This document shows, in pieces, positions 6,591 to 62,463 of a DNA stretch of 64,000 nt; positions within the stretch are counted from its first letter, which is position 1; the number at the start of each line of letters is the position of its first letter. The DNA is taken from assembly GCF_053078305.1 (NCBI RefSeq), contig NZ_CP166879.1; one strand, given 5' to 3'. The notes under the pieces were generated by a model. The model was not told the DNA's origin and did not search any database. It saw nothing but the letters and a program-made list of their open reading frames with translations. A program made the translations under genes and the position numbers.

Positions 6591-9479
6591 ATGCCCCGCA
6601 GCACCTGGTTCAAAGCATTATTGTTGTTAGTTGCCCTTTGGGCACCATTAAGTCAGGCAGAAACGGGATGGCAGCCGATTCAGGAAACCATCCGTAAAAG
6701 TGATAAAGATAACCGCCAGTATCAGGCTATACGTCTGGATAACGGTATGGTGGTCTTGCTGGTTTCTGATCCGCAGGCAGTTAAATCGCTCTCGGCGCTG
6801 GTGGTGCCCGTTGGGTCGCTGGAAGATCCCGAGGCGTACCAGGGGCTGGCACATTACCTTGAACATATGAGTCTGATGGGGTCGAAAAAGTACCCGCAGG
6901 CTGACAGTCTGGCCGAATATCTCAAAATGCACGGCGGTAGTCACAATGCCAGCACGGCACCGTATCGCACGGCTTTCTATCTGGAAGTTGAGAACGACGC
7001 CTTGCCCGGTGCGGTAGACCGCCTGGCCGATGCTATTGCAGAACCCTTGCTCGACAAGAAATACGCCGAACGTGAGCGTAATGCAGTGAACGCTGAATTA
7101 ACCATGGCGCGTACGCGTGACGGGATGCGCATGGCACAGGTCAGCGCAGAAACCATTAACCCGGCACACCCCGGTTCAAAGTTTTCTGGTGGTAACCTCG
7201 AAACTTTAAGCGACAAACCTGGTAATCCGGTGCAGCAGGCGCTGAAAGATTTCCACGAGAAGTACTATTCCGCCAATTTGATGAAGGCGGTTATTTACAG
7301 TAATAAACCGCTGCCGGAGTTGGCAAAAATGGCGGCGGACACCTTTGGTCGCGTGCCGAACAAAGAGAGCAAAAAACCGGAAATCACCGTGCCGGTAGTC
7401 ACCGACGCGCAAAAGGGCATTATCATTCATTACGTCCCAGCGCTGCCGCGTAAAGTTCTGCGCGTTGAGTTTCGCATCGATAACAACTCAGCGAAGTTCC
7501 GCAGTAAAACGGATGAATTGATTACCTATCTGATTGGTAATCGCAGCCCAGGTACACTGTCTGACTGGCTGCAAAAGCAGGGGTTAGTTGAGGGCATTAG
7601 CGCCAACTCCGATCCTATCGTCAACGGCAACAGCGGCGTATTAGCGATCTCTGCGTCTTTAACCGATAAAGGTCTGGCGAATCGCGATCAGGTTGTGGCG
7701 GCTATTTTTAGCTACCTCAATTTGTTACGTGAAAAAGGGATCGATAAACAATACTTCGATGAACTGGCGAATGTGCTGGATATCGACTTCCGTTATCCGT
7801 CAATCACCCGTGATATGGATTACGTCGAATGGCTGGCAGATACCATGATTCGCGTTCCGGTTGAGCATACGCTGGATGCAGTCAATATTGCCGATCGGTA
7901 CGATGCTAAAGCAGTAAAAGAACGTCTGGCGATGATGACGCCGCAGAATGCGCGTATCTGGTATATCAGCCCGAAAGAGCCGCACAATAAAACGGCTTAT
8001 TTTGTCGATGCGCCGTATCAGGTCGATAAAATCAGCGAACAAACTTTCGCTGACTGGCAGCAAAAAGCTGCCAGTATTGCGCTCTCCTTACCGGAGCTTA
8101 ACCCCTATATTCCTGACGATTTCTCGCTGATTAAGTCAGAGAAGAAATATGACCATCCAGAGCTGATTGTTGATGAGTCGAATCTGCGCGTGGTGTATGC
8201 GCCAAGCCGTTATTTTGCCAGCGAACCCAAAGCTGATGTCAGCCTGATTTTGCGTAATCCGAAAGCCATGGACAGCGCCCGCAATCAGGTGATGTTTGCG
8301 CTCAATGATTATCTCGCAGGGCTGGCGCTTGATCAGTTAAGCAACCAGGCGTCGGTTGGTGGCATAAGTTTTTCCACCAACGCTAACAACGGCCTTATGG
8401 TTAATGCTAATGGTTACACCCAGCGTCTGCCGCAGCTGTTCCAGGCATTGCTCGAGGGATACTTTAGCTATACCGCTACGGAAGATCAGCTTGAGCAGGC
8501 GAAGTCCTGGTATAACCAGATGATGGATTCCGCAGAAAAGGGTAAAGCGTTTGAGCAGGCGATTATGCCCGCGCAGATGCTCTCGCAAGTGCCGTACTTC
8601 TCGCGAGATGAACGGCGTAAAATTTTGCCCTCCATTACGTTGAAAGAGGTGCTGGCCTATCGCGACGCCTTAAAATCAGGGGCTCGACCAGAGTTTATGG
8701 TTATCGGCAACATGACCGAGGCCCAGGCAACAACGCTGGCACGCGATGTGCAAAAACAGTTGGGCGCTGATGGTTCAGAGTGGTGTCGAAACAAAGATGT
8801 AGTGGTCGATAAAAAACAATCCGTCATCTTTGAAAAAGCCGGTAACAGCACCGACTCCGCACTGGCAGCGGTATTTGTACCGACTGGCTACGATGAATAC
8901 ACCAGCTCAGCCTATAGCTCTCTGTTGGGGCAGATCGTACAGCCGTGGTTCTACAATCAGTTGCGTACCGAAGAACAATTGGGCTATGCCGTGTTTGCGT
9001 TTCCAATGAGCGTGGGGCGTCAGTGGGGCATGGGCTTCCTTTTGCAAAGCAATGATAAACAGCCTTCATTCTTGTGGGAGCGTTACAAGGCGTTTTTCCC
9101 AACCGCAGAGGCAAAATTGCGAGCGATGAAGCCAGATGAGTTTGCGCAAATCCAGCAGGCGGTAATTACCCAGATGCTGCAGGCACCGCAAACGCTCGGC
9201 GAAGAAGCATCGAAGTTAAGTAAAGATTTCGATCGCGGCAATATGCGCTTCGATTCGCGTGATAAAATCGTGGCCCAGATAAAACTGCTGACGCCGCAAA
9301 AACTTGCTGATTTCTTCCATCAGGCGGTGGTCGAGCCGCAAGGCATGGCTATTCTGTCGCAGATTTCCGGCAGCCAGAACGGGAAAGCCGAATATGTGCA
9401 TCCTGAAGGCTGGAAAGTGTGGGAGAACGTCAGCGCGTTGCAGCAAACAATGCCCCTGATGAGTGAAAAGAATGAGTGA
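6591..9479 (+). CDS. ptrA: Protease III (pitrilysin), periplasmic zinc metalloprotease
   Basis: 962-aa ORF with signal peptide and the inverted zinc-binding motif HYLEH; lies between recC and recB as in E. coli. Confidence 0.95.
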   Translation: MPRSTWFKALLLLVALWAPLSQAETGWQPIQETIRKSDKDNRQYQAIRLDNGMVVLLVSDPQAVKSLSALVVPVGSLEDPEAYQGLAHYLEHMSLMGSKKYPQADSLAEYLKMHGGSHNASTAPYRTAFYLEVENDALPGAVDRLADAIAEPLLDKKYAERERNAVNAELTMARTRDGMRMAQVSAETINPAHPGSKFSGGNLETLSDKPGNPVQQALKDFHEKYYSANLMKAVIYSNKPLPELAKMAADTFGRVPNKESKKPEITVPVVTDAQKGIIIHYVPALPRKVLRVEFRIDNNSAKFRSKTDELITYLIGNRSPGTLSDWLQKQGLVEGISANSDPIVNGNSGVLAISASLTDKGLANRDQVVAAIFSYLNLLREKGIDKQYFDELANVLDIDFRYPSITRDMDYVEWLADTMIRVPVEHTLDAVNIADRYDAKAVKERLAMMTPQNARIWYISPKEPHNKTAYFVDAPYQVDKISEQTFADWQQKAASIALSLPELNPYIPDDFSLIKSEKKYDHPELIVDESNLRVVYAPSRYFASEPKADVSLILRNPKAMDSARNQVMFALNDYLAGLALDQLSNQASVGGISFSTNANNGLMVNANGYTQRLPQLFQALLEGYFSYTATEDQLEQAKSWYNQMMDSAEKGKAFEQAIMPAQMLSQVPYFSRDERRKILPSITLKEVLAYRDALKSGARPEFMVIGNMTEAQATTLARDVQKQLGADGSEWCRNKDVVVDKKQSVIFEKAGNSTDSALAAVFVPTGYDEYTSSAYSSLLGQIVQPWFYNQLRTEEQLGYAVFAFPMSVGRQWGMGFLLQSNDKQPSFLWERYKAFFPTAEAKLRAMKPDEFAQIQQAVITQMLQAPQTLGEEASKLSKDFDRGNMRFDSRDKIVAQIKLLTPQKLADFFHQAVVEPQGMAILSQISGSQNGKAEYVHPEGWKVWENVSALQQTMPLMSEKNE

Positions 9480-17791: not shown

Positions 17792-17868
<77 letters not shown>

Positions 17869-17900
17869 TCACCGTACTGCTTTATTTCATCAAATTTGAT

Positions 17901-17977
<77 letters not shown>

Positions 17978-18010
17978 TCACCGTACTGCTTTACTTCATC
18001 AAATTTTAAT

Positions 18011-18087
<77 letters not shown>

Positions 18088-19481: not shown

Positions 19482-19579
19482 GCCGGATGCGGCGTGAACG
19501 CCTTATCCGGCCTACAAATCATGCAAATCCAAAATATTGCAGGAGTTATGTAGGCCTGATAAGCGTAGCGCATCAGGCA
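19482..19579. repeat. BIME / REP pair in the mltA-tcdA intergenic region
   Basis: GCCGGATGCGGCGTGAACGCCTTATCCGGCCTACA … TGTAGGCCTGATAAGCGTAGCGCATCAGGC, typical REP units in inverted orientation. Confidence 0.85.
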
Positions 19580-22571: not shown

Positions 22572-22776
22572 AAAAAAAAGCACCGCAATTAGGCGGTGCT
22601 ACATTAATCACTATGGACAGACAGGGTAAATGTACAGGAAGTGAAAAAAGGTAGCTTTGCTACCATGGTCTGAATCGCAGACCAATTGCAAACACAACAA
22701 CACAACATCACAACCGTAAGCCAAAAGTTCACCAGAACACGCATTCCGATAAAACTTTTCGTTCCGGCTCAGGAAG
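22572..22776 (-). ncRNA. gcvB: GcvB small regulatory RNA
   Basis: Minus strand reads ACTTCCTGAGCCGGAACGAAAAGTTTTATCGGAATGCGTGTTCTGGTGAAC…GTTGTGATGTTGTGTTGTTGTGTTTGCAATTGG… (GU-rich R1 region) and ends in a hairpin plus T-run; divergent from gcvA. Confidence 0.9.
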
Positions 22777-22905
22777 TGCCGCCACTATAGGTATTTGCTG
22801 GTAGAAGCTCAACGGACAATTTATAATGGCTCAGATTAAAAAAACTAATAGGTTACACACTGTGATCTAATTGTTAAATTCATTTAACATCAAAGTTTAA
22901 AAGCC

Positions 22906-40192: not shown

Positions 40193-40738
40193 GTGGACGA
40201 TTTGACCGCACAAGCCCTGAAAGATTTTACTGCACGCTACTGCGATGCGTGGCATGAAGAGCATAAAAGCTGGCCGTTAAGTGAGGAACTGTACGGCGTT
40301 CCTTCACCGTGCATTATTTCAACTACTGAAGATGCCGTATACTGGCAACCCCAGCCGTTTACCGGGGAACAAAATGTAAACGCGGTTGAACGCGCTTTTG
40401 ATATTGTGATACAACCCACAATTCATACCTTTTATACGACTCAGTTTGCCGGGGATATGCACGCGCAGTTTGGCGATATCAAACTGACATTGCTGCAAAC
40501 CTGGAGTGAAGACGACTTCCGTCGGGTGCAGGAAAATCTGATTGGTCATCTGGTGACTCAGAAAAGGCTAAAACTGCCACCCACGCTATTTATCGCGACG
40601 CTGGAAGAAGAGTTAGAGGTCATCTCGGTGTGTAATCTCTCCGGTGAAGTGTGTAAAGAGACGCTGGGAACACGTAAACGGACGCATTTAGCCTCAAATC
40701 TTGCGGAATTCCTTAATCAACTTAAGCCTCTTCTGTAA
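40193..40738 (+). CDS. syd: SecY-interacting protein Syd
   Basis: 181-aa ORF with GTG start, recognised as Syd. Confidence 0.85.
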
Positions 40739-40757: not shown

Positions 40758-40775
40758 TGTGAGAGATCTCTTACA
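40758..40775. promoter_or_regulatory. Candidate UvrY (BarA/UvrY response regulator) binding palindrome upstream of csrB
   Basis: TGTGAGAGATCTCTTACA, an 18-bp near-perfect inverted repeat about 180 bp upstream of the csrB 5' end. Confidence 0.65.
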
Positions 40776-40948
40776 GACTCTGTAGGAGATCGCCAGGAAA
40801 TAAGCGAATACTTAAAAAGATAAGAATCGTTATTTTCATTTAAAATCAATATGTTGCTTGTTAATTCCTAACTTTCATATGAAATTTTCCTTAAGGCATT
40901 GTCTGTAAGCGCCTTGTAAGACTTCGCGAAAAAGACGATTCTATCTTC

Positions 40949-41317
40949 GTCGACAGGGAGTCAGACAACGAAGTGAACATCAGGATGATGACACTTCTGA
41001 AGGACACACCAGGATGGTGTTTCAGGGAAAGGCTTCTGGATGAAGCGAAGAGGATGACGCAGGACGCGTTAAAGGACACCTCCAGGATGGAGAATGAGAA
41101 CCGGTCAGGATGATCCGGTGGGTCAGGAAGGCCAGGGACACTTCAGGATGAAGTATCACATCGGGGTGGTGTGAGCAGGAAGCAATAGTTCAGGATGAAC
41201 GATTGGCCGCAAGGCCAGAGGAAAAGTTGTCAAGGATGAGCAGGGAGCAACAAAAGTAGCTGGAATGCTGCGAAACGAACCGGGAGCACTGTGAATACAG
41301 TGCTCCCTTTTTTTATT
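40949..41317 (+). ncRNA. csrB: CsrB regulatory RNA (CsrA-sequestering)
   Basis: Starts GTCGACAGGGAGTCAGACAACGAAGTGAACATCAGGATGATGACAC…; carries many CAGGATG / AGGA repeats and ends in a strong hairpin (GGGAGCACTGTGAATACAGTGCTCCC) plus T-run. Confidence 0.92.
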
Positions 41318-41359
41318 CCTGCTATCCTTCGCGGCAGTTTTTCTTATTGAGGTTGCTTT

Positions 41360-41689
41360 ATGACCACTCATGACCGCGTTCGTCTCCAGTTGCAGGCGCT
41401 TGAAGCGTTACTGCGTGAACATCAGCACTGGCGAAACGATGAACCCCAGCCACATCAATTTAACAGTACCCAACCGTTCTTTATGGACACCATGGAACCA
41501 CTGGAGTGGTTGCAGTGGGTGCTGATCCCGCGAATGCACGATTTGTTAAATAACAACCAGCCGTTACCGGGCGCTTTTGCCGTTGCTCCCTATTATGAAA
41601 TGGCGCTGGCGACGGACCATCCGCAACGCGCGCTTATTCTGGCTGAGTTGGAAAAACTGGATGCTCTTTTTGCGGATGATGCGAGCTAA
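41360..41689 (+). CDS. yqcC: DUF446-family protein
   Basis: 109-aa ORF whose stop overlaps the truC start. Confidence 0.85.
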   Translation: MTTHDRVRLQLQALEALLREHQHWRNDEPQPHQFNSTQPFFMDTMEPLEWLQWVLIPRMHDLLNNNQPLPGAFAVAPYYEMALATDHPQRALILAELEKLDALFADDAS

Positions 41690-42471
41690 TGCTGGAAATA
41701 CTCTATCAGGATGAATGGCTGGTTGCGGTAAATAAACCCTCCGGCTGGCTGGTTCACCGCAGCTGGCTGGATCGCGACGAGAAAGTAGTGGTCATGCAAA
41801 CCGTGCGTGACCAGATAGGACAGCATGTTTTTACTGCTCATCGTCTGGACCGACCAACTTCTGGTGTGTTGTTGATGGGATTATCCAGCGAGGCCGGACG
41901 GCTGCTGGCACAACAGTTTGAACAGCACCAAATCCAGAAACGTTACCATGCGATTGTGCGCGGCTGGTTGATGGAAGAAGCGGTGCTGGATTATCCACTG
42001 GTGGAAGAACTGGACAAAATCGCTGATAAATTTGCCCGCGAAGATAAAGGCCCGCAGCCAGCAGTGACGCATTATCGCGGTCTGGCGACCGTAGAAATGC
42101 CGGTAGCGACCGGACGTTACCCGACCACGCGCTACGGCCTAGTGGAACTGGAGCCGAAAACCGGACGCAAACATCAGCTTCGCCGACATCTTGCCCATTT
42201 GCGTCATCCGATTATTGGCGATAGCAAACATGGCGATTTACGCCAGAATCGCAGCGGTGCTGAGCATTTTGGTCTTCAGCGGTTAATGCTGCATGCCAGT
42301 CAGTTGTCATTGACGCATCCTTTTACTGGCGAGCCGCTGACTATTCACGCGGGCCTGGACGACACCTGGATGCAGGCGTTATCACAATTTGGCTGGCGCG
42401 GTCTGCTTCCTGAAAATGAAAGGGTTGAGTTCAGTGCGCCATCAGGTCAGGATGGAGAGATAAGTTCCTAA
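41689..42471 (+). CDS. truC: tRNA pseudouridine(65) synthase
   Basis: 260-aa ORF, RluA-family pseudouridine synthase. Confidence 0.9.
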
Positions 42472-42488
42472 TCCAGGGAGAAAACGGT

Positions 42489-42938
42489 ATGGCGGAAATT
42501 GGTATTTTTGTCGGCACCATGTACGGAAATTCGCTGTTAGTGGCGGAAGAAGCAGAAGCAATTCTGACCGCACAGGGCCACAAAGCAACGGTATTTGAAG
42601 ATCCTGAATTAAGCGACTGGCTGCCCTATCAGGATAAGTATGTTCTGGTGGTTACGTCCACGACCGGGCAGGGCGACCTTCCTGATAGCATTGTGCCGCT
42701 CTTTCAGGGAATCAAAGATAGTCTGGGCTTCCAGCCGAATCTGCGTTATGGCGTGATTGCGCTCGGCGACAGCAGTTATGTAAATTTCTGCAATGGCGGC
42801 AAACAGTTCGATGCCTTGTTGCAGGAACAGAGCGCTCAGCGGGTTGGCGAAATGCTGTTGATTGACGCCAGTGAGAACCCGGAACCGGAAACGGAATCAA
42901 ATCCGTGGGTCGAACAGTGGGGCACGCTGTTGTCCTGA
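42489..42938 (+). CDS. yqcA: Flavodoxin-like protein
   Basis: 149-aa ORF with flavodoxin-type FMN-binding N-terminus (…[10 protein letters not shown]…). Confidence 0.85.
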
Positions 42939-43372
42939 TATGTTCAGCGAGCGGTAAATGTCGTTTTAGCGGTGCTGAATCGAATCTTTTCAGGCAAATG
43001 CCAGTAAAAACTGCTTCATAGCGCGGATTTTTACTGGCGTTTGCCTGGAGTCAAGCGATCCATTTCATACTCTTCTTTATTTCTTCGTTTTAACCCTTCC
43101 TTTCTTGTTCTTGTTTTCATTTCCGTGAAGTGGATTCCACCGTCCAGGGCTAATGCCAAAATCGGGCCTCATTGAACGCATTAATGTTGTGTTGTTGCAC
43201 GGTGAGCCGCTATGGCGCGCTTTTTATACTGCTATTGCCAGATATAAACACGCGCCGTATTCGGCGAACGACCTATAAAAACGGCAAAAAACACCCTACG
43301 TCACCTCTGATTTCCTGGCGATGTCGCAGTCCAGAGTGAGCGTGGCTAACGCGAATTTTCAGGAGTGCAACA

Positions 43373-44725
43373 ATGAGTTCTTTAAGTCAGGCTGCGAGCA
43401 GTGTGGAAAAACGCACGAATGCTCGTTACTGGATAGTGGTGATGTTGTTTATCGTCACATCCTTCAACTACGGCGACCGCGCTACGCTTTCTATTGCCGG
43501 TTCGGAAATGGCCAAAGATATCGGCCTTGATCCCGTGGGAATGGGCTATGTGTTCTCTGCCTTCTCATGGGCTTATGTTATCGGGCAGATCCCTGGTGGT
43601 TGGTTGCTGGATCGTTTTGGTTCAAAACGCGTCTACTTCTGGTCGATCTTTATCTGGTCGATGTTTACCTTGCTGCAAGGCTTCGTCGATATCTTTAGTG
43701 GATTCGGCATTATCGTTGCCCTGTTTACTCTGCGCTTCCTGGTCGGGCTTGCTGAAGCGCCATCTTTCCCCGGCAACAGTCGCATTGTTGCGGCCTGGTT
43801 TCCGGCGCAGGAAAGGGGAACGGCGGTGTCGATTTTTAACTCCGCTCAATACTTCGCAACGGTGATCTTCGCGCCGATTATGGGCTGGCTGACGCATGAA
43901 GTGGGCTGGTCACACGTCTTCTTCTTTATGGGCGGTCTGGGGATTGTCATCAGCTTTATCTGGTTGAAAGTCATCCACGAGCCAAATCAACATCCGGGGG
44001 TAAATCAGAAAGAGCTGGAGTACATCGCCGCGGGTGGCGCGCTGATCAATATGGATCAGCAAAACACCAAAGTTAAAGTGCCGTTCAGCGTGAAGTGGGG
44101 GCAGATCAAACAACTGCTCGGGTCACGGATGATGATCGGCGTTTATATCGGTCAGTACTGTATTAACGCCCTGACTTACTTTTTCATTACCTGGTTTCCG
44201 GTTTATCTGGTGCAGGCGCGTGGGATGTCGATTCTGAAAGCGGGCTTTGTGGCTTCCGTTCCGGCGGTTTGTGGTTTTATCGGTGGTGTGCTGGGTGGGA
44301 TTATTTCCGACTGGCTGATGCGCCGCACGGGATCGCTGAACATTGCGCGTAAAACACCGATCGTAATGGGCATGTTGCTGTCGATGGTGATGGTGTTCTG
44401 CAACTACGTCAACGTTGAGTGGATGATCATCGGCTTTATGGCGCTGGCCTTCTTCGGTAAGGGCATCGGGGCGCTGGGTTGGGCAGTAATGGCAGATACC
44501 GCGCCAAAAGAGATCAGCGGTCTTTCCGGTGGCCTGTTCAACATGTTCGGTAACATTTCTGGCATCGTCACGCCAATCGCAATTGGTTATATCGTTGGCA
44601 CGACTGGCTCGTTTAATGGGGCGCTGATTTATGTTGGTGTTCATGCCTTAATCGCGGTACTGAGCTACCTGGTGCTGGTGGGCGATATCAAGCGTATCGA
44701 GCTGAAACCTGTCGCGGGGCAATAA
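43373..44725 (+). CDS. gudP: D-glucarate/galactarate transporter (MFS)
   Basis: 450-aa polytopic membrane ORF upstream of gudX/gudD. Confidence 0.9.
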
Positions 44726-44726
44726 G

Positions 44727-46067
44727 ATGACGACACAATCCAGTCCTGTTATTACTGATATGAAAGTCATTCCGGTCGCCGGGCACGATAGCATGTTGCT
44801 TAATATTGGTGGGGCACATAACGCATATTTCACCCGCAATATTGTGGTACTCACCGATAACGCCGGGCATACCGGCATTGGTGAAGCGCCGGGCGGAGAG
44901 GTGATTTATCAGACGCTTGTCGAAGCTATTCCGATGGTGCTGGGCCAGGAAGTTGCGCGCCTGAATAAAGTGGTTCAGCAGGTGCATAAAGGTAATCAGG
45001 CCGCCGATTTTGATACCTTCGGTAAAGGGGCCTGGACCTTTGAATTGCGCGTTAACGCCGTGGCGGCGCTGGAAGCCGCCTTGCTTGACCTGCTAGGTAA
45101 GGCGCTGAATGTTCCGGTCTGCGAACTGTTAGGGCCAGGCAAGCAACGCGATGCTATCACCGTCCTCGGTTATCTGTTTTATATCGGTGATCGGACTAAA
45201 ACCGATCTTCCTTATCTGGAAAATACGCCGGGCAATCATGAGTGGTATCAGTTGCGACATCAGAAAGCGATGAACAGCGAAGCCGTTGTGCGTCTGGCGG
45301 AAGCCTCACAGGATCGCTATGGCTTTAAAGATTTCAAACTTAAGGGCGGGGTGTTACCTGGCGAGCAAGAAATCGACACTGTTCGTGCATTGAAGAAAAG
45401 CTTCCCGGATGCGCGGATTACCGTTGATCCCAACGGTGCCTGGCTGCTTGATGAAGCCATTTCTTTGTGCAAAGGGCTGAATGATGTTCTTACCTATGCC
45501 GAAGATCCATGCGGCGCAGAACAGGGCTTCTCCGGACGTGAAGTGATGGCGGAGTTTCGGCGGGCGACCGGCTTGCCCGTCGCGACTAATATGATCGCCA
45601 CCAACTGGCGCGAAATGGGCCATGCGGTAATGCTCAATGCGGTGGATATTCCACTTGCCGATCCGCATTTCTGGACGCTTTCCGGTGCAGTCCGAGTGGC
45701 GCAGCTTTGCGACGACTGGGGGCTGACCTGGGGCTGCCATTCTAATAACCATTTCGATATCTCTCTGGCGATGTTTACCCATGTGGGCGCGGCGGCACCG
45801 GGTAATCCTACCGCTATCGATACCCACTGGATTTGGCAGGAGGGCGATTGTCGCCTGACCCAAAATCCGCTGGAGATTAAAAACGGAAAAATTGCCGTTC
45901 CTGATGCGCCCGGTCTGGGCGTGGAACTGGACTGGGAACAGGTACAAAAGGCACATGAGGCCTATAAACGTCTGCCTGGCGGTGCGCGTAACGACGCAGG
46001 CCCGATGCAGTACCTGATCCCCGGCTGGACCTTTGACCGTAAACGTCCCGTTTTCGGCCGTCATTGA
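44727..46067 (+). CDS. gudX: Glucarate dehydratase-related protein (enolase superfamily)
   Basis: 446-aa paralogue of the following gudD; the two translations are closely similar. Confidence 0.9.
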
Positions 46068-46087
46068 TTCTGAAAAAGGACATAAAT

Positions 46088-47428
46088 ATGAGTTCTCAAT
46101 TTACGACGCCTGTTGTTACTGAAATGCAGGTCATCCCGGTGGCGGGCCATGACAGTATGCTGATGAATCTGAGTGGTGCACACGCACCGTTCTTCACGCG
46201 TAATATTGTGATTATCAAAGATAATTCTGGTCACACTGGCGTAGGGGAAATTCCCGGCGGCGAGAAAATCCGTAAAACGCTGGAAGATGCGATTCCGCTG
46301 GTAGTGGGTAAAACGCTGGGTGAATACAAAAACGTTCTGACGCTGGTGCGTAATACTTTTGCCGATCGTGATGCCGGCGGGCGCGGTTTGCAGACATTTG
46401 ATTTGCGTACCACTATTCATGTAGTTACCGGGATAGAAGCGGCAATGCTGGATCTGCTGGGGCAGCATCTGGGGGTTAACGTGGCATCCCTGCTGGGCGA
46501 TGGTCAACAGCGTAGCGAAGTCGAAATGCTCGGTTATCTGTTCTTCGTCGGTAATCGCAAAGCCACACCGCTGCCGTATCAAAGCCAGCCGGATGACTCA
46601 TGCGACTGGTATCGCCTGCGTCATGAAGAAGCGATGACGCCGGATGCGGTGGTGCGCCTGGCGGAAGCGGCGTATGAAAAATATGGCTTCAACGATTTCA
46701 AACTGAAAGGCGGTGTACTGGCCGGGGAAGAAGAGGCCGAGTCTATTGTGGCACTGGCGCAACGCTTCCCGCAGGCGCGTATTACGCTCGATCCTAACGG
46801 TGCCTGGTCGCTGAACGAAGCGATTAAAATTGGTAAATACCTGAAAGGTTCGCTGGCTTATGCAGAAGATCCGTGTGGTGCGGAGCAAGGTTTCTCCGGG
46901 CGTGAAGTGATGGCAGAGTTCCGTCGCGCGACTGGCCTGCCGACTGCAACCAATATGATCGCCACCGACTGGCGGCAGATGGGCCATACGCTCTCGTTAC
47001 AATCCGTTGATATCCCGCTGGCGGATCCGCATTTCTGGACGATGCAAGGTTCGGTACGTGTGGCGCAAATGTGCCATGAATTTGGCCTGACCTGGGGTTC
47101 ACACTCTAACAACCACTTCGATATTTCCCTGGCGATGTTTACCCATGTTGCCGCCGCTGCACCGGGTAAAATTACTGCTATTGATACGCACTGGATTTGG
47201 CAGGAAGGCAATCAGCGCCTGACCAAAGAACCGTTTGAGATCAAAGGCGGGCTGGTACAGGTGCCAGAAAAACCGGGGCTGGGTGTAGAAATCGATATGG
47301 ATCAAGTGATGAAAGCCCATGAGCTGTATCAGAAACACGGGCTTGGCGCGCGTGACGATGCGATGGGAATGCAGTATCTGATTCCTGGCTGGACGTTCGA
47401 TAACAAGCGCCCGTGCATGGTGCGTTAA
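46088..47428 (+). CDS. gudD: D-glucarate dehydratase
   Basis: 446 aa from [23 protein letters not shown]. Confidence 0.9.
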
Positions 47429-47440
47429 GACAAAAAACCA

Positions 47441-47466
47441 AAACCGGCTCTATCTGGAGCCGGTTT
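47441..47466 (+). terminator. Hairpin after gudD
   Basis: AAACCGGCTC-TATCTG-GAGCCGGTTT. Confidence 0.55.
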
Positions 47467-47490
47467 GAGACTGATGCCAAACACAAAATT

Positions 47491-47587
47491 GCCTGATGCG
47501 CTACGCTTATCAGGCCTACATGCTTTTTAATTTATTGAATTTAATTGGTTTTGTAGGCCGGATAAGGCGTTAACGCCGCATCCGGCA
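47491..47587. repeat. BIME / REP pair in the gudD-barA intergenic region
   Basis: GCCTGATGCGCTACGCTTATCAGGCCTACA … TGTAGGCCGGATAAGGCGTTAACGCCGCATCCGGC. Confidence 0.85.
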
Positions 47588-47660
47588 TAAACACAGGCAC
47601 TTTGTCACCAATCTGAAACCAGCGTCATAAAAAGCCGATTGCTACTCGACAAGACGTCCG

Positions 47661-50417
47661 TTACCCGAGAATTTTGCTGGCTTCGCGCGCGACATTATCC
47701 ATCTCGTCCAACAGTTCCAGCAGCTCCGGCTCCAAATCTTCTTCTTTAGTACCGCTACGTAGCTGTTGTTCGATCAGTTGGCAGAGATTCTTCATACGCG
47801 GCACACCGCTATAGCCGCAACTGCCATGCAGTTTATGAATCAAATCAACCAGGCCTTCCGGGTTTTCTCCAACCAGCTGTTCCTCAACTTTGTTGCGAAC
47901 TTCAGGCAGGAAATCGAGTAACATTTGCAGCATATCGCGCGCTAAATCGGTTTTTCCTGCTGCCTGGCGTAGTGCCAGTTGCCAGTCGAGGGTCGCATTC
48001 GGGTTCACCACAATTTCGTTGACTTCGGGCGTCACGACGCGAGACGAAATACCGCTGCCAGGCTTGTAGCGCAACAACAAATTATGCAATCGCTCTTCTT
48101 CAATCGGTTTCGCCAGATAATCGCTCATCCCTGCGCCAAGCAGCTTCTCTTTTTGCCCGGCCATTGCATGCGCCGTTACCGCGATAACCGGCGTTTGTTG
48201 CTGATGGGGGAGCTGGTGGATGAGCTCGCAGGCCCGAATGCCATCCATGTCCGGCATTTGAATATCCATTAAGATCAAATCGAACGGCATCTGTTTCGCC
48301 CGTTCAACCGCCTGATGCCCGCTATCGCAAAGTTCCACATGTTGCACCATATCTTCCAGCAATGCGCCGATAAGTTTCAGGTTAGCGGGGTTGTCATCAA
48401 CCGCCATGACTGTCATTGCCAGCTTACTTTCATCGGTTACAGGCAAAAGCGTGTTTTGTTTGTGATGACAAAATTCCGTCAGGGCAGGCAGCAGGCGCGT
48501 AGGTGTTAATGGTTTCAGCAGACACGCGCCGATACCATCTTGCTTGAGTTTTTCAGCATTGACTTGTGCATGGCAAGGAAGTGCCAGCATCAGGAAATCG
48601 GTCATCGATACCGCTTTCGCTAATCGCTCATGTTGCATTGTTAGCGGCTCGCGGAAGGTCACCGCGATGCCTAACAACATCATGTCGTAATGCGCGGGAG
48701 GCAGCGCGGAGAACGTTGGGCTATAAACCACTTCCAGCGGCGTTTCACTTAAAATATCCAGCGTGCATTGCGCTGCTGCGGAGTTTGGTTCGACATAGGC
48801 CAGGCGTTTACCGGCGAGGCACTGGGTGGATGGCCCTTCAATAATAATGTTCGGGTTCAGATCGAGATTAATGTGGAACCAGAAAGTTGAACCGCGATTC
48901 GGCTGGCTATGGAACGAAATATCGCCGCCCATTTCATTAACCAGTTTTTGTGTAATCACCAGCCCCAGCCCGGTGCCACCATGACGGCGGGAAATACTGG
49001 CATCAGCCTGTCGGAAGGCCTGGAATAAGCGCGATTGATCACGTTCAGGAATACCAATGCCGGTATCCCGAATCTGCACTTCAATCTGCACTTTGGTATT
49101 ACTCAGCGCACGTTTTTCTACCAGAATATCAATGTTGCCATTCTCGGTGAATTTAATTGCATTCCCCACCAGGTTAGTGATGATTTGCTGTAATCGCAGT
49201 GGGTCGCCGATCACGTTATCAGGCACGTCGCTTTTAATATTGAGCGTCAGTTCCAACCCTTTATCGTGAGAAGAATGTGCCAGCAGAGTAACGACTTCAT
49301 CCAGCGTGCTGCGTAGTGGGAATGGAATACTTTCCAGAATCAGCTTACCTGCTTCCAGTTTCGAGAAGTCGAGAACATCATTAATAATTGCCAGCAAATT
49401 ATTTGCCGAACGTTCAATCGTATTCAGGTGATCGCGCTGCGTTGGTGTTAATTCTGTTTTCAGCGTCAGGCGGGTAAAGCCAATAACACCATTCAGTGGT
49501 GTACGCAGCTCGTGTGACATATTTGCCAGAAACTCGGATTTAATACGTGCCGCTTCCTGGGCGCGCTTTTTCGCCAGATCCAACTCAACGTTCTGAATTT
49601 CCATCTGCTCCAGCGTTTCACGCAGATCGGACGTCGCCTGGTCGATATTGTGCTGCATCTCTTCGTGATAAGCAGCCAGCGACATTGCCATCGAGTTGAT
49701 ACCGTTTTTCAGCATATCCAGCTCGCCGAGCATAAATCCTTCCACCCGGCTGTCGAGTTGCCCGCGACGGATGCGGTCGACGGTATTCACCATGTTGCGA
49801 ATCGGACCGGTTACATCGCGCATTAAGCGCCAGCCAAAAATAAGCGCAATACCGATACAAAACAGCATCATCACGCTGGAAATAAAGATCTCTTTATATT
49901 GCTGCAAGCGAACCGATTTAAGATCCAGCTCAAGCGCAATATATCCCAACATATTTTGACTATTTTTGGCATCGCTACTGGGCGATTCGTCGGGGGAGTA
50001 ACTCTCAGAAATAATCGGCGTGCGCAGGATCATAATATCGCCGTCACGAGTGACAGTGAGCTGGCGAGGAAACGGCACGTTGCTGCCGAGCTGCATTGAT
50101 GAGGGATCAAGATGAAAATTGGAGGTGACAAAGAGTCGGTTATTTTCATCATAAACCGAAATCGCGCGAACAATATCGGAATGGCGACGATGCAGTACGC
50201 TTATTAACTGACCGATAGATTCGCGATTTTGCAGGCTCATGCCATATTCAGTAGAAACTGCAAGCGGCTCAATAATGCTGGCACCGGCATCTTCCAGTTG
50301 ACGCTGCAAGTCGTTATAGCGATGCACGACGAAAAAGATACTCAGCAATAAACCAATAAGGACGGTCGGTGCCAGGATCAGAATCATCATGCGTGCGCGC
50401 AGGCTGTAGTTGGTCAT
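47661..50417 (-). CDS. barA: Hybrid sensor histidine kinase BarA
   Basis: 918-aa ORF with HAMP, HisKA/HATPase, receiver and HPt regions. Confidence 0.95.
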
Positions 50418-58891: not shown

Positions 58892-59785
58892 TTACCAGCG
58901 ACCGGACGCGCCGCCACCGCCAGAAGAACCGCCCCCGCCGCTAAATCCGCCGCCACTTGAGCCTCCACCGGAAGAGGATGAAGAAGAACTTTTTCTTGAA
59001 GCTCTTTCTTTACTGAGTTTTTTGTATTTGGCGCGTAGCTTTTTATTGACGATAAGCCAAAAAATAACCAGTGGTACGCTCGCAAAAGGCGTTAACATAC
59101 CGCAGGCAACGATTAAATTGGTCCATGGTCCTGGCTCGGCAACATAGAGGAATACCATCCCGTAAATGGCGCCAGTGAGAGTGATCCAGGGTAAATTCGA
59201 CGGATCGGTAAAAACAATAAAATATGAAAGTACCGCCAGCAATATAATTACAGCAAGCGATAATGGAATAGGGGGATTGATACTGTAATAATCCCCCTTG
59301 TCTTCCGATAATTCACCATTCAACAGAAGCGCGCCGATATTTTCGCTTGCCAGTGTTAATCCACCCATCAGGTCATCACTTTTGAAGGCAGGGATCAATA
59401 TATCCCTGATAATCTTCGCCGCTTGCAGGTCGGTAACCACCCCTTCCAGCCCGTAGCCAACCTCAATACGAACAGCATGATCCTCCCAGGCAACCAGAAG
59501 TAAAATACCATCGTTTCTCTGCTTATCTCCCAGTTTCCAGCTATCAAAAACGCGTGTTGCATATTGTTCAATGGAATCGTCTCCGGTGGACGGCACTACT
59601 AATACAGCGACCTGCGCCCGTGTTTTATGTGTAATATCCTGCAGTTGCTGTGTCAGTGATTGTTGTTCAGAAGTGCTTAACGTACCAGTAATATCGGTCA
59701 CCTGTTGGCGCAGCTCCGGCACAGCAATTTGCTGGGCAAGCCCAGGAAGGCACCACAAAGTGAATAGAATAAAGATTAAGCGCAT
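58892..59785 (-). CDS. TPM-domain membrane protein (YgcG-like), eno-proximal paralogue
   Basis: Signal peptide MRLIFILFTLWCLPGLAQQ, then TPM-like region (…ITGTLSTSEQQSLTQQLQ…AQVAVLVVPSTG…), hydrophobic segments, and C-terminal Gly/Ser tail ending SGRW; ATG at 59785 preferred over the TTG at 59797. Confidence 0.8.
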   Translation of the reverse strand: MRLIFILFTLWCLPGLAQQIAVPELRQQVTDITGTLSTSEQQSLTQQLQDITHKTRAQVAVLVVPSTGDDSIEQYATRVFDSWKLGDKQRNDGILLLVAWEDHAVRIEVGYGLEGVVTDLQAAKIIRDILIPAFKSDDLMGGLTLASENIGALLLNGELSEDKGDYYSINPPIPLSLAVIILLAVLSYFIVFTDPSNLPWITLTGAIYGMVFLYVAEPGPWTNLIVACGMLTPFASVPLVIFWLIVNKKLRAKYKKLSKERASRKSSSSSSSGGGSSGGGFSGGGGSSGGGGASGRW

Positions 59786-59790
59786 TACGA

Positions 59791-60939
59791 TCACCAACGG
59801 CCGGATGAACCGCCGCCTCCTGAAGAACCGCCACCACCGCGGAAAGAATTTCTCGACGAAGAGCGAGAATGAGCATTACGATTCCCCGTTTTCCTGTTGC
59901 TTTTTTCTCCTGACCCCAGCTTAAGATTGCCAGTAAATTTGGCCACAATGATCAGCAGAACGATGCCAGCAATGGTTATTGGGCCGATAAAATGATCAAT
60001 TAACCCAATAATTGTTGAGATGAATGCAATATCTTTATTACTGGCGAACACCAGGCACCATCCCACAATAATTATCAGCATCACGACAAACAATGAATTT
60101 CGTCCTGATTCACGAACCTGCGGAGTCTTCTTTTGTTTTTTCACTTTAGCGTTTTTATTTTTTGGGGCCAGCATCATAGGAAATACGCGGCACAAATTAA
60201 AAACTACCGCGAGACGCTGCTTGCAGGTTGTTGCTAACAATAAACTAAAACAAACGACCGATACCCGCCGAATGATGACATCGTCCTGAAAGGAGAAAAA
60301 CCAGACCATAGGGGTAATCATCGATATCATCCATATGCCACGCCGTGGGCGGCTGGCAAATCGCCAGAGGACAACGATGGCAACGATCATCAGCAGTGTC
60401 CAGGCAAGACATGGCAGCGAACGTTGCGGATTAGCAAACAGATGATTGGCTAAAGCATCCAAAGGGCTAAGGTTCGCTTTGATATGGGTAAACTGTGCGA
60501 TGCTTTCAATTCCGCCCGTTAATCCAGCAAAGAGATTGTTTTTTTCGAATTCTGGCTGCATATGGTAACGAACAATTTGCGCAGCTTGTTCCGGCGGCAA
60601 CATCTCTTCCAGTCCATGTCCAATCTTCATTGACGCCAGCCCTTCCGGCCATACGACGAGAATTAAGATACCTTCGCCATATCGCTTCTCTCCAACGGGT
60701 TTCCAGTGATATACCCCGTATCTCTGCGAGGCTGCAAGTTTAATGTTTTTGCCCCCTGTGGTCGGCGTAACCAACACGGCCACCTGGAAGTGGTTTTGCT
60801 GCTCGAGAGTCTGTAATTGTTGAGTTAAAGCAGTTTGTTCTTCTGTCGTTAATGTCCCGGTTAAGTCATTCACTGAAGGCAATCGTTCAGCGAATACCTG
60901 AAAACTGCATAGCATCAGAAGTAAGAGAAAAATACGCAT
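59791..60939 (-). CDS. TPM-domain membrane protein, divergent and longer middle paralogue
   Basis: Signal peptide, TPM-like N-terminal region (SVNDLTGTLTTEEQTALTQQLQ…), several hydrophobic helices, a Lys-rich segment (KNKNAKVKKQKK) and a Gly/Ser tail ending SGRW. Confidence 0.75.
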   Translation of the reverse strand: MRIFLLLLMLCSFQVFAERLPSVNDLTGTLTTEEQTALTQQLQTLEQQNHFQVAVLVTPTTGGKNIKLAASQRYGVYHWKPVGEKRYGEGILILVVWPEGLASMKIGHGLEEMLPPEQAAQIVRYHMQPEFEKNNLFAGLTGGIESIAQFTHIKANLSPLDALANHLFANPQRSLPCLAWTLLMIVAIVVLWRFASRPRRGIWMISMITPMVWFFSFQDDVIIRRVSVVCFSLLLATTCKQRLAVVFNLCRVFPMMLAPKNKNAKVKKQKKTPQVRESGRNSLFVVMLIIIVGWCLVFASNKDIAFISTIIGLIDHFIGPITIAGIVLLIIVAKFTGNLKLGSGEKSNRKTGNRNAHSRSSSRNSFRGGGGSSGGGGSSGRW

Positions 60940-60956
60940 ATCAATTCCTTTTGTTA

Positions 60957-61847
60957 CTAGCGCCCGGAAGCGCCACCGCCACCAGATGAACCGCCACCAC
61001 CGCTGAAATTGTCATTGTTGAATGAAGAGGATGACGATGATGAATAGTGGGAGGAAGAATTGCTTCTTGTATGGCGTGATGGCTGGTTGACATCACGCAT
61101 CAAATCCCGAACTTTTTTGCCGAAGGGAGTAACAGCGATGGCGACAGCCAGGAACGGTGTGGCGAAGCAGAGTAATGTTGCGAGTACTCCCCAGCTTCCG
61201 CTGAAGCCTGCTATAGGTAAAACAAAGGCCAGTACAATAGCTGCGAAGCAAATTACTCCCAGCGTTTTGATATATCCTCTGGCAGAAATAAACGTCAGTA
61301 CTATCGCCCAGACTAACAATGCCCACCAACCGCTAAAGGGCAAAGGGTGATCGGTCGGTGTAATCGTTGCTAAATTATTCCCCGTCAGACGACTTTCAAG
61401 ATCGCTGATCCCCTTTTGTAAACCGACAGCAAGGTCGCCTTTTTTAAATGCAGGAATAATATTGTTGCGAATAATTTTCCCGGACTGCGCATCCGTAATA
61501 ATACCTTCCAGTCCGTAACCGATTTCAATACGCACGGTATGATCCTGCCAGGCGACTAACAGTAGAACGCCATTATCGCGGTCTTTATCACCCGGTTTCC
61601 AGCTATCGAATACCCGCGTTGCGTACTGCTCGATGGTTTCATCGCCTGTTGTATCAACCACTAACACGACCAACTGTGCGTGGTTTTTTTGCGTCAGGGC
61701 TTTAATCTGGTTGGTCAGGGTGTTTACTTCGCTGTTTGTTAATGTGCCGGTTAAGTCATTCACATACTTGGGGGATTCAGGTACTGGAATTTGTGTGGCA
61801 AACACAGATGAACAGAAGAAAGCCATAAGGAAGATAAAATTTCGCAT
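60957..61847 (-). CDS. TPM-domain membrane protein (YgcG-like), LemA-proximal paralogue
   Basis: From the ATG at 61847 (MRNFIFLMAFFCSSVFA signal peptide), TPM-like region closely similar to the eno-proximal paralogue, hydrophobic segments and a Ser-rich/Gly-rich tail. Confidence 0.8.
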   Translation of the reverse strand: MRNFIFLMAFFCSSVFATQIPVPESPKYVNDLTGTLTNSEVNTLTNQIKALTQKNHAQLVVLVVDTTGDETIEQYATRVFDSWKPGDKDRDNGVLLLVAWQDHTVRIEIGYGLEGIITDAQSGKIIRNNIIPAFKKGDLAVGLQKGISDLESRLTGNNLATITPTDHPLPFSGWWALLVWAIVLTFISARGYIKTLGVICFAAIVLAFVLPIAGFSGSWGVLATLLCFATPFLAVAIAVTPFGKKVRDLMRDVNQPSRHTRSNSSSHYSSSSSSSFNNDNFSGGGGSSGGGGASGR

Positions 61848-61860
61848 AGAACTTCCCCGC

Positions 61861-62463
61861 TTAATGAGCATTAGCATTCTGGCTAAAATCTATTGTTGGG
61901 GCTTTACTTACTGCGGTGACATCATCCGGCAAATAATTTTTCTTTGGTGTGTAATCCATGACCTTTGCGGTTAATACAGCGGGGAATTTGCGGATAGTGA
62001 CATTATATTGTTCAATGGCTTTAATATATCTTCCTCGCGCAACGGCAATTCTATTTTCACTTCCTTCGAGCTGTACCATTAAGTTTTGATAGAGCTCTTG
62101 AGCCTTTAACTCAGGGTAACGCTCACTAATTATCGTTAACTGACCGAGAGTGCGAGTCACCTGCGCCTGGGCCTGTTGCCAGGCTTGTAATTTTTGTGCA
62201 TCTCCCGGAGCTTGCTGAAGATCGCTGCTGGCGCGATTAGCCTGGCTACGAGCCAATGTTACGGCTTCCAAAACGTCTTTTTCATGGCTGGAATAACCTT
62301 TAATACTGGCGACAAGATTAGGAATAAGATCGGCGCGACGTTGATATTGATTCAATACCTCAGACCAGGAGGCGTTAACCTGCTCATCATAGGTTTGAAT
62401 ATCGTTATATCCACAGCCTGATAAATTGAAAATAAATATAATTACGATGAATATTCTGAGCAT
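61861..62463 (-). CDS. LemA-family lipoprotein
   Basis: 200-aa ORF with lipobox (…IFNLSGC) and LemA-like sequence (…WSEVLNQYQRRADLIPNLV…); first gene of a four-gene minus-strand cluster. Confidence 0.8.
   Translation of the reverse strand: MLRIFIVIIFIFNLSGCGYNDIQTYDEQVNASWSEVLNQYQRRADLIPNLVASIKGYSSHEKDVLEAVTLARSQANRASSDLQQAPGDAQKLQAWQQAQAQVTRTLGQLTIISERYPELKAQELYQNLMVQLEGSENRIAVARGRYIKAIEQYNVTIRKFPAVLTAKVMDYTPKKNYLPDDVTAVSKAPTIDFSQNANAH

Follow-up and report, generated by a model that had tools for sequence, protein, structure and literature searches.

We asked whether one stretch of DNA, 64,000 nt of contig NZ_CP166879.1 (hereafter the window), holds both the gene of the sensor kinase BarA and, upstream of its regulatory target csrB, the promoter element to which UvrY, the partner response regulator, is thought to bind. 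A sequence-only reading had proposed that it does, and both components were confirmed. The window is collinear with K-12 2.906-2.965 Mb in reversed orientation at 98.7% identity, and the locus is an ordinary E. coli region with the gene order syd-csrB-yqcC-truC-yqcA-gudPXD-barA. The whole account, in which BarA acts through phosphorylated UvrY (UvrY-P) at an 18-mer upstream of csrB, and csrB in turn acts on CsrA, all within an ordinary E. coli region, is one that we hold with near certainty. The gene of the response regulator is another matter: a tblastn search with K-12 UvrY as query did not find uvrY in the window, the sole match being a 29%-identical receiver domain within barA. The window therefore lacks a complete signalling pair, the presence of which had never been claimed. 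Since barA, csrB, the UvrY site and their interpretation are already known and well characterised, the label of established biology that the reading attached to the locus was correct, and the interpretation is already in print.

The small RNA gene csrB occupies 369 nt of the plus strand (40949-41317). The Rfam model RF00018 (CsrB) matched positions 40958-41317 with 384 bits (gathering threshold 71; E 1e-111), and the match covered model positions 1-356 of 356. The gene is collinear with K-12 b4408, also 369 nt long, from which it differs by three substitutions only (C52A, T167C, and G340A); the span proposed from the letters is that of b4408, base for base apart from these three. Many GGA motifs had been noted by eye, and the count came to 22 triplets (12.3 ± 2.8 in shuffled sequences), a number given for CsrB in PMC5027483 as well. 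CAGGATG occurred six times, against 0.03 expected. In the folded RNA (MFE -122.7 kcal/mol, z = -4.8) the GGA triplets had a mean unpaired probability of 0.81, compared with 0.44 across all bases, and 17 of the 22 were unpaired in the MFE structure, nine in hairpin loops and eight in other single-stranded parts. An intrinsic terminator (41282-41317, plus strand) consists of an 11-bp stem (41282-41307) with seven GC pairs, followed by a T run. CsrA binding and sequestration have been published for the near-identical K-12 CsrB RNA (PMC5027483), and the csrB RNA of the window, with its GGA motifs mostly unpaired, would be expected to sequester CsrA likewise.

The tripartite sensor kinase gene barA lies on the minus strand (47661-50417) and encodes 918 amino acids. 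Residues 1-917 of the product matched the BarA equivalog model NCBIfam NF008318 with 1624 bits, over the cutoff of 890, and the protein shows no amino-acid difference from K-12 BarA. Its Pfam domains are sCache_4, HAMP, HisKA, HATPase_c, Response_reg, and Hpt. H302, D718, and H861, the known phosphorelay residues, are all present. The distance from the 3' end of csrB to the near end of barA is 6.3 kb, in agreement with the roughly 6 kb estimated beforehand.

Upstream of csrB, exactly where it had been reported, an 18-bp near-perfect inverted repeat, TGTGAGAGATCTCTTACA, spans 40758-40775. Its centre (40766/40767) falls at -183/-182 relative to csrB +1 (40949), and it is self-complementary at 16 of 18 positions, with eight of nine arm pairs intact and one G/T pair at positions 4/15. 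The sequence is unique in the window even when up to three mismatches are allowed (0.03 expected), and the relaxed box TGTRAGN6CTYACA has its single exact match in the window at the same place. Further UvrY boxes in the window were rejected: a search for the relaxed box with up to two mismatches returned three matches, two of them besides the palindrome, compared with 5.1 expected. For conservation we used 67 distinct Enterobacterales species and an unbiased scan anchored on a 3' csrB motif. The palindrome was present with 0-3 mismatches in all 67 species, and in all but one of them its centre lay between -181 and -185; in the alignment of this set the sequence between the csrB upstream elements drifts and the elements are kept. 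Within E. coli, the 50-mer around the palindrome was identical in 4382 of 5422 genomes, and neither of the two variant types that could be placed among the 1040 variant genomes (40755 G>T and 40779 T>C) changes a base of the palindrome.

The significance of TGTGAGAGATCTCTTACA rests on this conservation and on its match to a known consensus. Zere et al. (2015; PMC4682653) found a ChIP-exo peak at the exact 18-mer at -183/-182 of csrB, DNase I protection of the 18-mer by phosphorylated UvrY, and UvrY binding reduced about 35-fold in a barA deletion strain. A genomic SELEX peak upstream of csrB is in independent agreement (PMC8249747). The published footprint thus places the UvrY site on the same 18-mer at the same offset, not elsewhere, and the assignment of a UvrY-type site stands. 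Given published binding to an identical sequence, 40758-40775 is predicted to be the upstream activating site for UvrY-P.

Five bp past the palindrome, in the orientation of its left arm, is a third UvrY-type half-site, TGTAGGAGATC (40781-40791, plus strand), on which PMC4682653 remarks as 'partially conserved TGTAGGAGA'. In our set, TGTRRGA was found 4-5 bp 3' of the palindrome in 67/67 species, most commonly in the form TGTGAGAGATC. The strictly kept layout of three half-sites (forward, reverse, 5 bp, forward) suggests that more than one UvrY dimer may be bound.

Closer to the gene, an IHF-type core, AATCAATATGTTG (40844-40856, plus strand; -105 to -93 of csrB), agrees at the sequence level with the consensus WATCAANNNNTTR, and the A/T-rich tract TTATTTTCATTTAAA lies 5' of it. 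The strict core was present in 25 of the 67 species, its start always at -104 to -107, and a relaxed core in 46, where the background rate is 0.08 per kb. In PMC4682653 a putative IHF site sits between two UvrY crosslink regions, and CsrB was about 10-fold lower without IHF; we infer that 40844-40856 corresponds to that putative site. The csrB promoter, as defined from conservation and the K-12 start, is of the sigma-70 type and weak, matching the consensus at 7/12 positions, and a promoter scan found no consensus-grade sigma-70 promoter for csrB, which fits activator dependence. The -35 hexamer TTGTAA (40914-40919) is conserved together with the GAC that follows it (40914-40922, plus strand), and 17 bp past the hexamer is the -10 region GATTCTAT (40937-40944, plus strand), with the hexamer GATTCT at -12 to -7. 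In the -35 element TTG is invariant, TTGTAAG begins at -35 or -36 in 53 of the 67 species, and G-29, A-28, and C-27 are each kept at 79-88%; in the -10 element A-11 and T-7 never vary, and the remaining positions are kept at 91-97% (66 species).

A UvrY half-site, TGTAAGA (40915-40921), overlaps the -35 hexamer and falls within the published downstream UvrY crosslink region (-56 to +25; PMC4682653). A further half-site-like hexamer, TGTAAG (40904-40909, plus strand; -45 of csrB), is restricted to Escherichia, Salmonella, Citrobacter, and Intestinirhabdus. The -35 half-site might serve as a low-affinity docking point for UvrY-P after bending by IHF. That it causes the downstream ChIP-exo crosslink is a weak hypothesis, because K-12 csrC shows a comparable downstream crosslink yet has no TGTRRG near its -35. 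In PMC4682653, UvrY-P gave no footprint at the promoter-proximal crosslink site, and purified RNAP, UvrY-P, and IHF together gave no csrB transcription in vitro. A second palindrome, CTTTCATATGAAA (40872-40884; starting at -77), was picked out by conservation: with up to three mismatches it was found at -76 to -78 in 33 of 67 species and not once in the control intervals. The searched literature yielded no mention of it in the context of csrB, and it might bind the missing csrB transcription factor. That the control region of csrB holds conserved elements bearing on both the unfootprinted crosslink and the failed in vitro transcription is a tentative idea, to which we give a rather low probability.

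The location of the 18-mer invites a different reading. It starts 19 nt past the stop codon of syd (SecY-interacting protein; 40193-40738, plus strand; NCBIfam NF003439, 287 bits against a cutoff of 153, and K-12 annotation), the gene 5' of csrB, and might be an RNA hairpin that terminates or stabilises the syd transcript at its 3' end instead of a protein-binding DNA site. As RNA, the right arm and the third half-site can indeed form a 12-bp hairpin (-21.8 kcal/mol, z = -3.3), and stem positions 15/27 covary (T-A 27, T-G 29, C-G 15, and C-A 2), although these counts ignore shared ancestry. However, no T run follows the palindrome and the terminator scan found no terminator there, and the stem positions are all kept as sequence and not through compensation. 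Pairing at positions 4/15 of the 18-mer was rarer than in every shuffle, and 11 species have A-C there, a pattern that fits independent TGTRAG half-sites and not a stem. Across genera, the distance separating the palindrome from the start of csrB varies by no more than ±2 bp, and purified UvrY-P leaves its footprint on this DNA (PMC4682653). After folding, pair counts, and the terminator scan we rejected the hairpin or terminator as very improbable. Could the palindrome have arisen by chance, with no function of its own? Counting zero-spacer 18-mers with 8/9 pairs or more gave 11 in the window and 7.9 ± 2.0, or about eight, in shuffled sequences; palindromy is not above chance here and was therefore dropped as an argument. 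TGTGAGAGATCTCTTACA is nonetheless the exact published operator, expected about 0.03 times per window at up to three mismatches, it keeps a fixed offset in 66/67 species amid drifting flanks, and experimental binding data exist (PMC4682653; PMC8249747). Conservation and the published footprints effectively refute a chance origin, for which we would allow almost no probability at all, and a UvrY-P operator is the reading that we retain.

The proximity of barA to csrB might itself be functional, for example if the sensor gene and the target promoter had been selected for co-localisation. The linkage is syntenic across Enterobacteriaceae and Erwiniaceae: at 22 loci from at least 12 genera of the two families, csrB is followed 1.8-9.5 kb downstream by barA on the other strand. 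In E. albertii, Erwinia, and Pluralibacter, barA comes immediately past yqcA, and the gudPXD operon between yqcA and barA looks like a later insertion. However, synteny holds to the same degree for the neighbours queF, syd, yqcC, truC, yqcA, rlmD, and relA, all of them core genes, and the linkage of barA and csrB therefore needs no special explanation. BarA works through diffusible UvrY, whose gene is about 0.93 Mb away in K-12; csrC, the second target, is at 4.05 Mb; and Hafnia paralvei showed no barA up to 10 kb from csrB. In PMC8249747, uvrY and its targets are classed as unlinked. We consider a selected co-localisation improbable. The papers that were searched gave no coverage of the -35 half-site, CTTTCATATGAAA, or the barA-csrB synteny.

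In the mechanism that we favour, the membrane-bound tripartite kinase BarA would sense protonated short-chain carboxylates and pass phosphate from H302 to D718 to H861 and on to UvrY, the product of a gene elsewhere in the chromosome; both steps are published. UvrY-P would occupy the inverted repeat at 40758-40775, 183 bp 5' of the csrB start, as published for the sequence that is identical here, and would probably also contact the adjacent third half-site (40781-40791). UvrY-P binding and its dependence on barA, as well as the dependence of csrB on IHF, have been demonstrated in the literature, and the DNA and RNA elements were observed here in their identity, position, and conservation. IHF near -100 may bend the DNA and bring UvrY-P to the weak promoter (TTGTAA-17 bp-GATTCT), and csrB transcription would be activated by UvrY-P delivered in this way; the looping geometry and any direct UvrY contact at -35 are what we infer. 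The 369-nt CsrB, with its 22 mostly unpaired GGA triplets, would draw CsrA dimers off mRNAs, as published.

The locus serves as a positive control, in which a kinase gene, a small RNA gene, and an operator were recognised from raw sequence with base-exact positions. Enteric bacteria use BarA-UvrY-CsrB/C-CsrA as a central post-transcriptional switch, to the description of which the window adds nothing new. Work on the activation of a weak promoter from 183 bp upstream could take its lead from the constant spacing of the elements, the -35 half-site, and the -77 palindrome.

Compared with known systems, the locus shares with E. coli K-12 csrB (b4408; PMC4682653) the gene order, the 369-nt length, the 18-mer, and its position at -183/-182; TGTAGGAGA 5 bp downstream of the 18-mer, the 22 GGA triplets, and an identical BarA are likewise common to both. 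It differs from K-12 in the RNA (C52A, T167C, and G340A, as above) and in the promoter spacer (-99, -92, and -81), while the palindrome and the half-site next to it are untouched, as are both promoter elements (-35 and -10) and the bases that make up the IHF consensus. The SirA/IHF system of Salmonella csrB is alike in layout in another species, and the Salmonella locus in our analysis (L059) carries the identical 18-mer at -183. SirA/IHF control of Salmonella csrB is reportedly the subject of Martinez et al. 2014 (J Bacteriol 196:325), who are said to have described a distant upstream inverted repeat of 18 bp, an IHF site between that repeat and the promoter, and conservation among enterobacteria. 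The GacA box of Pseudomonas has the same palindromic consensus, and the small RNAs that it controls belong to other families. There, a GacA box lies upstream of rsmX, rsmY, and rsmZ, and an orthologous FixJ/NarL-type regulator activates these CsrA/RsmA-sponge RNAs. Measured against Pseudomonas GacA boxes, as they are generally known, the box in the window is unusually far upstream (-183). The GacA box TGTAAGN6CTTACA is the consensus used in PMC4682653, where Pseudomonas rsmZ is described as being helped by IHF as well.

We examined the palindrome that the sequence-only reading had placed upstream of csrB and found its position right to the base: the 18-mer TGTGAGAGATCTCTTACA occupies 40758-40775, and the 181-aa ORF upstream of it, syd, has its stop codon 19 bp before it. 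Sixteen of its 18 bases are self-complementary, G4/T15 being the sole imperfect pair. Palindromy alone is unremarkable, since 11 zero-spacer 18-mers with at least 8 of 9 pairs occur in the window vs 7.9 ± 2.0 in shuffles. Searched at up to 3 mismatches, the 18-mer has a single site in the window (0.03 expected), which is also the sole exact match there to the relaxed box TGTRAGN6CTYACA. With +1 at 40949 its centre (40766/40767) falls at -183/-182, and the DNA directly 3' of it (40776-40789) reads GACTC followed by TGTAGGAGA. Published UvrY binding data match exactly in 18-mer and centre: in ChIP-exo, csrB and csrC were the strongest UvrY targets, and in the middle of the upstream crosslink region of csrB, -222 to -142, stands TGTGAGAGATCTCTTACA, "centered at -183/-182", with an extra TGTAGGAGA 5 bp downstream of the palindrome (Zere et al., 2015; PMC4682653). 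In the same work, purified UvrY-P gave DNase I protection at the upstream csrB site only, and UvrY binding at csrB in vivo was about 35-fold lower without barA (PMC4682653). Independent genomic SELEX agrees, its main peak for UvrY lying upstream of csrB (PMC8249747), as does a 2020 review (PMC7652899).

The csrB gene was detected by Rfam (CsrB, RF00018) at 40958-41317 on the plus strand with 384 bits vs a gathering score of 71. Side-by-side comparison with the 369-nt K-12 gene b4408, whose ends coincide exactly, sets it at 40949-41317 (+), as had been claimed, with three substitutions (C52A, T167C, and G340A). The GGA count and RNA folding were also in agreement with that claim: there are 22 GGA triplets vs 12.3 ± 2.8 in shuffles, the number published for E. 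coli CsrB (PMC5027483), and CAGGATG occurs six times vs 0.03 expected. The fold is 4.8 sd better than shuffles and leaves the triplets mostly exposed (unpaired probability 0.81 vs 0.44 for all bases), of which hairpin loops hold 9 and other single-stranded stretches 8, while 5 are partly paired; the RNA ends in a terminator, with an 11-bp stem followed by a T run. The sensor kinase gene barA, also reported in the window, was identified at 47661-50417 on the minus strand (NCBIfam equivalog, 1624 bits vs a cutoff of 890). Its product has sCache, HAMP, HisKA, HATPase, receiver, and Hpt domains and shows no amino-acid difference from K-12 BarA, with H302, D718, and H861 present. In published work BarA is described as a sensor of protonated short-chain carboxylates that phosphorylates UvrY (PMC7652899 among the sources), and CsrB sequesters CsrA.

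For the cross-species footprint, the anchor was a 20-nt motif in the 3' portion of csrB, chosen to avoid selecting for the palindrome, and one genome per species was scanned with it. After csrB had been placed in the matches by nhmmer, the upstream DNA was inspected, and 67 distinct species were kept in which the 5' end of csrB was aligned and the upstream sequence extended to 260 nt or more. The best 18-mer match had no mismatch in 49 species, one in 12, two in 4, and three in 2, and was centred at -181 to -185 in 66/67. A third half-site, TGTRRGA (40781-40791 in the window), stands 4-5 bp past the palindrome in all 67, its most frequent form TGTGAGAGATC being a complete copy of the left arm. 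The outer TGT.AG/CT.ACA and the central AT are (nearly) invariant; variation is seen at palindrome positions 4, 8, 11, and 15, and the spacer of 5 bp to the third half-site is unconstrained. Of 5422 E. coli genomes, 4382 share an identical 50-mer over the palindrome and third half-site and the others differ at 1-2 positions; neither of the two variants that were placed, 40755 G>T and 40779 T>C, falls in the palindrome or the third half-site.

The arms usually differ at the R position (window 40761 and 40772). Among 73 distinct operator sequences with a 5-bp spacer (loci L005-L122; raw counts, kinship ignored), 63 combine one TGTGAG with one TGTAAG in either orientation, and perfectly symmetric UvrY palindromes are rare (10/73). 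In Enterobacillus tribolii (L076, about 7768-9008, minus strand), csrB is present as a tandem array of three copies at intervals of about 610 bp, and a UvrY-type palindrome with 2-4 mismatches precedes each of them at about -182.

Conservation of the palindrome at a fixed offset rules out a chance occurrence. It could also be argued that the region works as an RNA hairpin and not as a protein-binding DNA site, because the right arm and third half-site, read as RNA, form a 12-bp hairpin (-21.8 kcal/mol) in which positions 15/27 covary. However, no T run follows this hairpin, the terminator scan is empty there, and what the region conserves is sequence, not pairing. At positions 4/15 of the 18-mer, pairing is rarer than in every shuffle and 11 species have A-C, the pattern that independent TGTRAG half-sites would give, and purified UvrY-P footprints the palindrome as DNA (PMC4682653). 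The hairpin was rejected. The UvrY site is backed by published footprints, independent SELEX, and deep conservation, which sustain the interpretation made from the sequence.

In an alignment of 25 genera the spacer between palindrome and csrB drifts freely save for a few islands: an IHF-type core (AATCAATATGTTG in the window, 40844-40856), a second palindrome CTTTCATATGAAA starting at -77 (40872-40884), TTGTAAGAC at -35, and GATTCTAT at -12 to -5. The strict IHF form WATCARNNNNTTR occurs in 25/67 species; its start never leaves the interval -104 to -107, and its background frequency is 0.08 per kb. When up to 3 mismatches are allowed, CTTTCATATGAAA is found at -76 to -78 in 33/67 Enterobacterales species (control intervals were all lower) and is missing in Enterobacter, Leclercia, and Kosakonia; the searchable literature holds no mention of it at -77 of csrB and no known binding factor. 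The promoter region differs from K-12 at three places (-99, -92, and -81), all non-consensus positions. Martinez et al. (2014) reportedly made a similar footprint for Salmonella, and some of the conserved blocks may already be described there.

The csrB promoter, TTGTAA-17-GATTCT, agrees with the sigma-70 consensus at 7/12 positions and is not called by a consensus scan; such weakness fits activator dependence. Its -35 hexamer and the next three bases make up TTGTAAGAC, within which TGTAAGA is a UvrY half-site. TTGTAAG is found at -35 in 53/67 species, with G-29, A-28, and C-27 each at 79-88%. Two direct TGTAAG hexamers lie 11 bp apart (-45 and -34; window 40904-40922), the second overlapping the -35 hexamer; the -45 copy is confined to the Escherichia-Salmonella-Citrobacter group, whereas TTGTAAGAC is widely conserved. 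The -35 half-site, of which we found no mention in the literature searched, falls within the unexplained UvrY crosslink region at -56 to +25 of csrB. K-12 csrC, however, has no hexamer of this kind and yet shows a similar crosslink, so that UvrY being crosslinked indirectly, via RNA polymerase, is the simpler account. Expression of csrB depends about 10-fold on IHF, for which a putative site separates the two crosslink regions; in the "repositioning" model, the bend made by IHF would carry UvrY-P to the csrB promoter (Zere et al., 2015; PMC4682653). The mechanism is incomplete: RNAP, UvrY-P, and IHF alone did not yield csrB transcription and the promoter-proximal crosslink site gave no footprint (PMC4682653).

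The gene order is queF(-), syd(+), csrB(+), yqcC, truC, yqcA, gudP, gudX, gudD (all +), barA(-), rlmD(+), relA(+). The window is collinear with K-12 2,965,474-2,906,502, reversed, at 98.7% identity, diverging only beyond 58973, and the 801 bases around csrB are found in 5425/5426 complete E. coli genomes (top match 99.8% identical), which identifies the window as E. coli chromosome. A tblastn search of the window with K-12 UvrY matched only the barA receiver domain (29% identity); uvrY is absent. In 22 loci barA lies on the opposite strand, 1.8-9.5 kb 3' of csrB. The gudPXD glucarate operon separates yqcA from barA in E. coli and many others (window 42938-47661). Because yqcA is followed directly by barA in E. 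albertii, Erwinia, and Pluralibacter (L007, L037, L063, and L083), gudPXD seems to have been inserted into an older csrB-yqcC-truC-yqcA-barA block. We read the barA-csrB proximity, not mentioned in the literature searched, as ordinary synteny, since neighbouring core genes are all equally syntenic and the UvrY gene and csrC are unlinked to the region (PMC8249747 among the bases).

The sole large departure from K-12 is 58974-62428, where the window has a lemA-like gene and three TPM-domain genes (61861-62463, 60957-61877, 59791-60939, and 58892-59797; all four on the minus strand) and K-12 only yqcG and ygcG (about 0.9 kb); similarity ends again past 63674. Rfam also detected the sRNA GcvB (22572-22777, minus strand, 199 bits), three tandem initiator tRNA-Met genes (K-12 metZWV; 17795-18087, minus strand), and a short match to the sRNA ES036 (19515-19557, plus strand, 46.5 bits). 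In E. coli NZ_CM187577.1 (a laboratory culture of EcN) the csrB region matches at two separate places with the break at the equivalent of 40967, which suggests that this assembly has a csrB gene disrupted close to the 5' end. The RefSeq record of E. coli PE164 (L002) leaves csrB unannotated between syd and yqcC though the sequence is present, as do the other listed RefSeq records; K-12 is annotated.

The features not found in the literature searched (the -35 half-site, the -77 palindrome, and the barA-csrB synteny) are small points. Across genera the placement of the palindrome (-183), the IHF core (about -100), the -35, and the -10 is kept within ±2 bp, with unconserved sequence between. We concluded that the occurrence of barA, csrB, and the UvrY site together is confirmed to the base and was already known: every published element is intact and at its published position.
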